NCBI RefSeq assembly: GCF_044324875.1
Contig: NZ_CP172185.1
DNA length: 64,000 nucleotides
Origin: Escherichia coli
GTDB taxonomy: Bacteria > Pseudomonadota > Gammaproteobacteria > Enterobacterales > Enterobacteriaceae
Direction: 5' to 3' (one strand)
Position numbers: made by a program. Below are positions 24,301-27,300 of this stretch, one piece after another. Within the stretch, counting starts at the first letter, position 1. Each line of letters starts with the position of its first letter.

Positions 24301-27300
24301 TTTCATTAACTACTTCGCGGCCCAGCGCCAGTGAATAACCGAGCTGGTGCAATTCTTCCGCAACAAGGGTGGCAGTGCGGAATTCCACCCAGCCAGACTC
24401 TGCATAGTGGTGAAAATCACGTCGCCAGTGCGATAATTTTGGGGCAAACGAATTAACAAATTGATTCAAAGACTCCATAACCTTTCCCGTCATCAGTAAA
24501 AAGTGTGACCCGGTTCACGTAGCGATAGTTTTTACTTATCACTAACTGATTTTTCACAGTTTTAACCGTTCATAAATTACCCTGACACAATCATCTGCAT
24601 TAAAGTAGATGCCAGCTTCTTTGGTCTGATAAATAACGGTTATCGGTGGCGTCATGGCTTTTCAGGTAAAAATTCATCAAATTCGGGCTTTTGTTGAAGT
24701 GGCTCGTCAGGGCAGCATTCGCGGAGCGAGCCGAATGTTGAATATGTCGCAACCGGCACTGAGTAAATCTATTCAGGAGCTGGAAGAAGGGTTGGCGGCA
24801 CAACTCTTTTTTCGCCGTAGTAAAGGCGTGACGTTAACTGATGCCGGCGAAAGTTTTTATCAGCACGCCAGTCTTATTCTTGAAGAGCTGCGCGCAGCGC
24901 AAGAGGATATTCGCCAACGACAAGGGCAACTGGCAGGGCAAATTAATATCGGCATGGGGGCCAGTATTTCCCGCAGTCTGATGCCAGCTGTCATATCTCG
25001 TTTTCATCAGCAGCATCCGCAGGTAAAAGTACGCATTATGGAAGGGCAACTGGTATCGATGATTAATGAATTGCGCCAGGGGGAACTGGATTTCACCATC
25101 AATACCTATTATCAGGGACCCTACGACCACGAATTTACTTTTGAGAAATTACTGGAAAAGCAATTCGCGATCTTTTGCCGCCCGGGACACCCCGCCATTG
25201 GTGTCCGTTCGATCAAACAGTTACTGGACTACAGCTGGACAATGCCGACGCCACACGGCAGCTACTACAAACAGTTGAGTGAATTGCTTGACGATCAGGC
25301 GCAAACGCCACAGGTCGGTGTAGTCTGCGAGACGTTCTCAGCCTGTATCAGTCTGGTGGCAAAAAGCGATTTTCTCAGCATACTGCCTGAAGAAATGGGC
25401 TGCGATCCCTTGCACGGACAGGGGCTGGTGATGTTGCCGGTTAGCGAAATTTTACCGAAAGCGACCTATTATTTGATTCAGCGGCGTGATAGTCGCCAGA
25501 CACCACTGACCGCGTCATTAATCACGCAATTTCGGCGAGAATGCGGCTATCTGCAAAGTTAAAACTGCATAAAAAAATAGAGCCTGTCGACATCCGCCAG
25601 ACTCTACAGTACACACAGCAGTGCATCCTCGTCTTAAATCCGGCCTGGTCTCCTCTGTGCCGGTGACTGTGTTATAACGGTTTTAACCTTTAGTTGCCAA
25701 TTTTCTTCAGTGACAGATTTCACGAAAATATAAGTTACATTATTAATATCGTGAATGAATAATCATGCATAAGCATTTTGCTTAAAATATCGGCAACATT
25801 TGGAACTCATTACTGGAAATTTGGGTAATACGTTGTTGGACCGACCCGGTCTGGTTATCATATCGCGCTCTTAATTGCGGGAGGATGTAACATGAACCTT
25901 GACGACAAATCGCTGTTTCTTGACGCCATGGAAGATGTCCAGCCGCTGAAACGTGCTACAGATGTCCACTGGCATCCAACGCGTAACCAACGTGCGCCGC
26001 AGCGTATCGACACGCTGCAACTTGATAATTTCCTCACTACCGGATTTCTCGACATCATCCCGCTAAGTCAGCCGCTGGAGTTTCGGCGGGAAGGGTTGCA
26101 ACACGGGGTGCTGGATAAGCTGCGCAGTGGTAAATATCCGCAACAGGCGAGCCTGAATCTTTTGCGCCAGCCGGTGGAAGAGTGCCGCAAAATGGTGTTC
26201 AGTTTCATTCAACAAGCCCTGGCGGATGGTTTGCGTAATGTGCTGATTATTCATGGTAAAGGGCGGGAAGATAAATCGCATGCCAATATTGTCCGCAGCT
26301 ATGTGGCGCGCTGGTTGACCGAATTTGATGATGTCCAGGCATATTGTACCGCGCTACCGCATCATGGCGGCAGCGGGGCGTGTTACGTCGCACTACGTAA
26401 AACGGCACAGGCAAAGCAAGAAAACTGGGAGCGCCACGCTAAGCGCAGTCGTTGATCTCGAGACGCATCCGCGGCCTATGCCGCCAGCACGCGGTTGCGT
26501 CCATCATTTTTCGCCCGATACAAAGCATCATCAACGCGTTTAAACAGTTCATCGATGCTTTCATTTCCTTCGTGATGCGCCACACCAATGCTGACGGTAA
26601 AGCGTGGTAAGCCTGAAATACTCACTTTTGCCACGCTTACGCGGATAGTTTCAGCCAGCGAAAGCGCGGTATCCAGTGGGGTTCTTGGTAGCAATAAGAC
26701 AAACTCTTCGCCTCCCCAACGAAACACCAAATCGCCTTTGCGAGCGCAACTTTCGAGAGTGCGGGCGAGGGCGCATAACACCTCATCACCTTTAGAATGC
26801 CCATAGAGATCGTTAATGTGTTTAAAACGATCTGTGTCGATGAGCAATAAGCTGTAATCCTGAGCGATGGCGAGGTGCTGCATTTGGCCTGGCTCGGTAA
26901 TGTGATAAAACTGTCGCCGATTCAGTAATCCGGTCATCGCGTCATGGTGGGCAGCATGTTCCAGCTGCTCCTCCAGCCGTTTTTGCTCAGTAATATCATG
27001 CACAATACATAACATGAGCTTGTCGCCATAAATTTCAATCGGACCGGCATAGGTCTGCACATGACGAGTCGAACCATCCGCCAGTTTATGAACAAAATTC
27101 AAAGGCTTATGGCCACCGGGTAAATGCGAAATTTCATGCATGATAGGCATGACGCGTCGCCCGAGCATATTTATTTCCCAGGTATGTTTCTGGCACATCG
27201 TTTCATGGTTATAGCCATAGAAATTGAGCGCGGCGAGGTTAGCATCGACGATTTGGCCATCTCGTGAGGGGTCAATCAACAACATTGGTGCAGAGTTAGT

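Follow-up and report, generated by a model that had tools for sequence, protein, structure and literature searches.

In a 64,000-nucleotide (nt) stretch of Escherichia coli DNA (contig NZ_CP172185.1; hereafter, the window), the minus strand at positions 25571-25664 almost certainly carries mcaS (isrA, IS061), a ~95-nt small RNA (sRNA) expected to bind Hfq and CsrA and to have its own sigma-70 promoter and intrinsic terminator. This is an already known gene in a known place. A first-pass annotation had put McaS on this strand and at these ends, between abgR and smrA, with a T-run as its close, and all of this agreed with the matches and neighbours described below. The minus-strand sequence of the element is ACCGGCACAGAGGAGACCAGGCCGGAUUUAAGACGAGGAUGCACUGCUGUGUGUACUGUAGAGUCUGGCGGAUGUCGACAGGCUCUAUUUUUUU. 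RNA positions are numbered from the 5' end, with nt n corresponding to window position 25665-n. The gene and its two neighbours are as follows.

25571..25664, minus strand: McaS (IsrA/IS061) small RNA, 94 nt by the K-12 annotation, identified by Rfam RF00115 and a gap-free K-12 alignment
24654..25562, plus strand: abgR, the convergent neighbour, with its stop codon 8 nt from the McaS 3' end
25892..26455, plus strand: smrA, the divergent neighbour, separated from the McaS 5' end by 227 nt on its upstream side

To identify the element, the whole window was scanned with Rfam 15, and RF00115 (McaS/IsrA) matched at 25664..25569 on the minus strand with 111.6 bits (gathering score 42, E-value 6.7e-20). 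The match covers the full model (positions 1-96 of 96) with posterior probabilities of 1.00 throughout, and its end at 25569 lies 2 nt 3' of the K-12-annotated McaS end. The first-pass annotation had named the lack of a covariance-model match as grounds for giving up the assignment, and the result was the opposite, a score ~70 bits above the threshold. The alignment to E. coli McaS that it had proposed as a further check was gap-free, and 25571-25664 coincided base for base with the K-12 MG1655 ncRNA mcaS (b4426, 1405658-1405751, minus strand), with 91 of 96 nt identical. The abgR/smrA synteny around mcaS is that of K-12 and is common to thousands of E. coli genomes. RF00115 was the sole match in a permissive scan of 25300-26000, which gave no second Rfam family at E≤1, and three families (McaS/IsrA, FnrS and MicC) scored above their gathering scores in the window. 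A small-protein reading of the element was also considered and rejected: the frame opened by the AUG at nt 39 is 34 codons long and extends beyond the terminator with no stop codon inside the RNA, and no frame contains a complete start-to-stop open reading frame.

Upstream of the RNA, the following elements were recognized in front of the 5' end.

25671..25676 (-12..-7), minus strand: -10 hexamer TATAAC, identical to K-12
25695..25700 (-36..-31), minus strand: -35 hexamer TTGGCA, with an 18-nt spacer, identical to K-12
25709..25724 (centre -52.5), minus strand: CRP-like box cGTGA-N6-TCACt, a candidate for the reported cAMP-CRP dependence

Over the 110 nt upstream of mcaS, the only difference from K-12 is a single base at -110; farther out, another is found at -133. 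Every orthologue for which upstream sequence was available has TATAAC, TATAAG, TATAAA or TATACT at the same -10 place. The CRP-like box is identical in both of the E. coli haplotypes described below and nearly identical in Citrobacter, where the -10 and -35 elements are conserved as well. We infer that this GTGA-N6-TCAC box is a CRP site, while the CRP dependence itself is taken from the literature (PMC3634460); a literature search for the published position of the CRP site at mcaS gave nothing usable.

The RNA itself is organized into three stem-loops, four GGA motifs and a terminal U-tract.

25640..25663 (nt 2-25), minus strand: stem-loop 1, five G-C pairs and a 14-nt loop showing GGA at nt 12-14, from the folds and the cmscan alignment
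25651..25653 (nt 12-14), minus strand: GGA motif 1, in loop 1, the 5'-most CsrA site
25639..25641 (nt 24-26), minus strand: GGA motif 2, at the 3' foot of stem 1
nt 26-36, minus strand: A/U-rich linker
25626..25628 (nt 37-39), minus strand: GGA motif 3, invariant in 15 of 15 sequences
about nt 37-57, minus strand: region of stem-loop 2 and the conserved core
25610..25625 (nt 40-55), minus strand: conserved core UGCACUGCUGUGUGUA, stem 2 with its loop and the csgD-pairing seed
25577..25607 (nt 58-88), minus strand: stem-loop 3, the intrinsic terminator hairpin, with 10 pairs, an internal mismatch, 2 apical pairs and a 5-nt loop
25588..25595 (nt 70-77), minus strand: apical region of stem-loop 3, GGAUGUCG, containing GGA motif 4 (a CsrA site) and the flhD complement at nt 71-77
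25571..25577 (nt 88-94), minus strand: U-tract of seven U, the terminator tail and the expected Hfq-binding 3' end (Hfq by transfer from the literature, PMC6061853)

The U-tract is the T-run of the first-pass annotation. The sixth pair of stem 1 in the model (7-20) is an A·G mismatch in the window allele and is flagged as non-canonical in the cmscan alignment. GGA at about nt 12, 37 and 70 is present in all 15 sequences aligned, and these are predicted CsrA sites. GGA motif 2 is more restricted: none of the seven Escherichia and window copies lacks it, but of the four Citrobacter copies only that of C. amalonaticus S646 has it.

To compare the element across species, we collected 13 orthologous loci from species-representative genomes using a degenerate pattern derived from the McaS 3' half. 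They come from E. albertii, E. whittamii and other Escherichia lineages, Citrobacter amalonaticus and its relatives, Pseudescherichia vulneris and Trabulsiella odontotermitis. All 13 are full-length RF00115 matches with 69.6-108.7 bits, and the window copy (111.6 bits) scores highest. In the alignment nt 37-96 are nearly invariant, with the stem-3 loop region (nt 65-81) fully so and nt 45-57 fully or all but fully so, and the stem-3 apical region (nt 70-77) is invariant in all 15 sequences, while the 5' hairpin is hypervariable, nt 4-36 differing strongly across species. The published pattern is a highly variable 5' third together with a conserved 3' half of stem 2 and a conserved stem 3 loop (PMC4824073), and our alignment independently reproduces it.

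The three stems behaved differently when pairing was scored over the 15 aligned sequences. Stem 3 was paired in 100% of cells, and three of its pairs are altered on both sides, all of them in Trabulsiella. For stem 2, pairing was kept in 95.5% of cells in the register 39-44/49-54 and in 82.2% in the Rfam register 33-38/47-52, and the former is thus the better-supported register; stem 2 has no two-sided covariation because its 3' strand never varies. Stem 1 was paired in 59.6% of cells in the MAFFT alignment, and this poor score is partly due to distant species lying out of register there, with most copies forming a 5' hairpin with GGA in the loop when folded singly.

Target pairing was evaluated with window-limited and exact-complement searches, which replaced unrestricted folding of McaS with the leaders, as the latter gave unrealistic whole-molecule duplexes. 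McaS nt 40-55 form a 16-bp perfect complement of the csgD leader at -96..-81. The energy of this core duplex is -34.5 kcal/mol, compared with -17.9 +/- 2.8 for shuffled cores, and none of 300 shuffles was as good. MEI003 is a strain with the same mcaS allele as the window, and its csgD leader does not differ from that of K-12 over -147..+30. In the flhD leader, 7 nt at -61..-55 are complementary to nt 71-77 of the stem-3 loop, in K-12 as well as in MEI003. The proximal flhD leader of MEI003, including this loop-3 complement, is kept except for one change at -40, and its distal part (-198..-117) differs from K-12 by an indel and several substitutions and contains an 8-bp complement to McaS nt 24-31 that is absent in K-12.

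The window copy differs from K-12 mcaS by five substitutions (G7A, A18C, U20G, C36A and A82G), of which four lie within nt 1-36 and one within nt 37-96. Divergence over the surrounding 12 kb is 1.8%, and against this background the substitutions in the 5' part have a binomial P of ~0.004. The G82 state is the majority one across species. Of the 5,426 complete E. coli genomes, 5,367 carry a 96-nt mcaS sequence and 59 gave no match; identity of at least 99% to the window allele was seen in only 15, so the exact allele occurs in at most 15. In ETEC1739 (NZ_CP122758.1; locus segment 1501-2320), IS1 is inserted in mcaS after ~nt 64, a natural knock-out of the sRNA.

Alleles sampled across the identity range fell into two haplotypes. 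The K-12 type has G7, A18, U20, C36 and A82, with smrA upstream. The H35 type, sampled in WP7-S18-ESBL-09, S1-JOR-02-A and FDAARGOS_944 (in which abgR is a pseudogene), has CACC at nt 7-10, CC at nt 15-16, C18, G20 and A36, with G82 in two of the three strains. Its flank diverges upstream of about -68 and is unrelated beyond about -100, with the -10, -35 and CRP-like box retained, and instead of smrA an AraC-family or HTH gene ends ~70-80 nt upstream of mcaS. The H35 type probably accounts for the ~1,100 genomes in the 80-90% identity band, roughly a fifth of the total. The 7-20 pair covaries between the haplotypes: the K-12 type has G-U and the H35 type C-G, whereas in the window the pair is broken (A·G).

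Compared with K-12 McaS, the window copy shares locus, strand, ends, length, promoter, the three stem-loops, all four GGA motifs, the csgD-complementary core, the flhD-complementary loop 3 and the terminator; it has lost the 7-20 pair, and its nt 36 no longer pairs with G49 or G58. With the H35 type it shares C18, G20 and A36, and nt 17-96 of WP7-S18-ESBL-09 are identical to the window, whereas the CACC at nt 7-10 and CC at nt 15-16 of that type provide a C7-G20 pair that the window lacks. Judged from these sequences, the window allele looks like a rare intermediate of the two major haplotypes, with a K-12-like flank and 5' half of the loop and an H35-like remainder from nt 18 onward. Because the five changes miss every GGA motif, the csgD core and the flhD loop (loop 3), normal function is expected, and the window allele should behave as the K-12 RNA does, any quantitative difference being small at most. 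That such a difference would be measurable appears unlikely.

Several observations weigh against reading this copy as an ordinary, functional McaS. All functional statements made for it are transferred from K-12. The CRP-like box fits only 9 of 22 consensus positions, and its centre at -52.5 agrees with neither of the canonical placements, class I or class II. The McaS fold has z = -1.55 and is not unusually stable for its composition. The flhD pairing energy was matched by 251 of 300 shuffles, and chance alone would give a 7-mer match in about one case in 10; the energy being no better than that of shuffles, flhD pairing cannot be claimed from sequence. In the allele, stem 1 carries the A7·G20 mismatch, and C36A loses one pair, either from stem 2 in the Rfam register (A36·G49) or from the extended csgD/flhD duplexes, where its predicted cost is ~2-3 kcal/mol. 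A generic terminator scanner gave no terminator here, and a generic promoter scanner missed the real promoter. The rules of these scanners explain the misses, since the internal mismatch makes the hairpin 'loop' 11 nt (limit 8) and the last base of the -10 hexamer is C instead of T, and we did not treat them as evidence against the gene.

The allele-specific points lend themselves to an alternative in which the gene is mcaS and the allele is functionally different. Its larger loop 1, with the 5'-most CsrA site, and its weaker stem-2 base and extended csgD/flhD pairing would then have shifted the balance between base pairing and CsrA titration in this lineage. Both major haplotypes keep the 7-20 pair that is non-canonical here, and the predicted csgD duplex is -31.5 kcal/mol for the window versus -33.6 kcal/mol. 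The best K-12 flhD duplex (-21.2) uses GCGG at nt 35-38, which is lost here, the best one left (-20.1) lying elsewhere; the csgD leader of MEI003 has no compensating change, and the exact allele is as rare as given above. However, A36, G82, C18 and G20 are normal states of the second major haplotype, found in about one fifth of genomes, and are therefore clearly tolerated. Other genera have A, U or G at position 36, which falls outside the helix in the better-supported stem-2 register, and stem 1 of E. albertii also folds with only five pairs. The energy differences are within the error of the method, and we consider this alternative improbable.

The copy might instead be a decaying or silent relic of mcaS, unexpressed or non-functional in this lineage. 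Five substitutions in 96 nt exceed the ~1.8% divergence of the surroundings, and mcaS is dispensable in some strains, as indicated by the IS1 insertion in ETEC1739 and by the 59 genomes without a match. A relic is nevertheless very improbable, given a promoter identical to that of K-12, functional motifs that are all intact, a covariance-model score that is the highest of the set, and substitutions that fall where the family varies anyway. Hardly credible at all is the idea that the hairpin is mainly the terminator of convergent abgR and resembles an sRNA incidentally: 8 nt separate the abgR stop codon from the hairpin region and a plus-strand hairpin could impede abgR transcription, but on the plus strand the A/T run precedes the hairpin rather than following it, and a terminator alone leaves unexplained both the near-invariant 60 nt of minus-strand sequence 5' of the hairpin in four genera and the conserved promoter in front of it. 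The hairpin may also act as a secondary bidirectional terminator.

The assignment to mcaS brings with it a well-described regulator, and the roles in csgD and flhD control and in biofilm formation that the first-pass annotation gave to McaS match the literature (PMC3634460, PMC6061853, PMC4824073), with the underlying sequence elements intact here. McaS is a member of the CRP regulon that acts negatively on csgD and positively on flhDC and PGA production (PMC3634460). Stem 2 pairs with csgD and also mediates association of McaS with the RNA polymerase core, and the stem 3 loop mediates flhDC activation (PMC4824073). Together with Hfq, McaS causes the csgD mRNA to be cut endonucleolytically; the cleaved region is A/U-rich and lies upstream of where McaS pairs (PMC6061853). 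Two conserved GGA sites are reported for CsrA binding (PMC10729762, PMC4824073). McaS binds CsrA via GGA sites and this binding enhances csgD repression, and a GGA to CCA mutation of the 5'-most site abolishes the CsrA-dependent effect on csgD (PMC10729762).

By extension from the K-12 experiments, cAMP-CRP would induce McaS in this strain when nutrients run short. With Hfq, the stem-2 region would pair with the csgD 5' untranslated region, leading to cleavage upstream of the pairing site and switching curli off. The stem-3 loop would pair with the flhD leader, and more of the flagellar master regulator would be made. The loop GGA motifs would bind and titrate CsrA, de-repressing pgaABCD and the PNAG adhesin. 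In the last respect McaS is similar to CsrB and CsrC, as its GGA motifs in hairpin loops bind CsrA and relieve pgaA repression according to the literature. It differs from them in having 3-4 GGA motifs rather than many, in having no sequence relation to them, and in being also an Hfq-dependent base-pairing sRNA, thus dual-function.

Some other genes and small features near mcaS and farther along the window are listed here.

26476-27708, minus strand: dgcM (ydaM), a diguanylate cyclase gene two genes from mcaS
27902-27949, plus strand: YnaN (15 aa), annotated, upstream of zntB
29042-29159, plus strand: FnrS small RNA, full-model match to Rfam RF01796 with 134.8 bits, flanked by zntB and ynaL as in K-12
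29222-29395, plus strand: YnaL (57 aa, proline-rich), annotated, directly downstream of FnrS
33956-34076, plus strand: MicC small RNA, Rfam RF00121, 126.1 bits over the full model

In the indirect control of csgD transcription, RprA and OmrB target the dgcM mRNA (PMC3634460), and a csgD repressor (mcaS) and a component of csgD transcription control (dgcM) are therefore near neighbours. MicC adjoins an ompN-like porin gene (labelled OmpC by PGAP) and nifJ/ydbK. The window is without the Rac or Rac-like prophage that is present at ttcA in K-12 (6 kb from mcaS) and in MEI003. Collinearity with both genomes stops at 31854, the 3' end of ttcA, after which uspF, the porin gene and MicC follow directly; MEI003 is collinear with the window only over 2-31854. 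Identity of at least 99% over 31000-35000 was found in only 2 of the 5,426 genomes.

Since the part that McaS plays in switching between curli, flagella and PNAG has already been characterised, its presence here has little discovery value, and the practical value lies in annotation. The first-pass annotation had anticipated that a protein-centred annotation would miss it, and every RefSeq (PGAP) record inspected other than K-12 indeed lacks an mcaS feature under a strong Rfam match. The RefSeq record of MEI003 has the RtT sRNA annotated and neither McaS nor FnrS. Because these records omit mcaS, strain comparisons of biofilm regulation silently ignore McaS, and they also miss its natural variation, which comprises two major haplotypes, rare intermediates and IS1 knock-outs.

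A further reading of this variation, which we offer as doubtful, is that E. coli maintains two deeply diverged mcaS haplotypes, with 9 differences in the first 36 nt and almost identical nt 37-96, one beside smrA and the other beside an AraC-family gene. The window copy would then be a natural recombinant with a breakpoint near nt 16-18 that has lost the covarying 7-20 pair. If this were true, and if CsrA capture is tuned by the 5' hairpin or the hairpin has targets that differ between strains, the biofilm and motility set-points of such recombinants would be measurably different.

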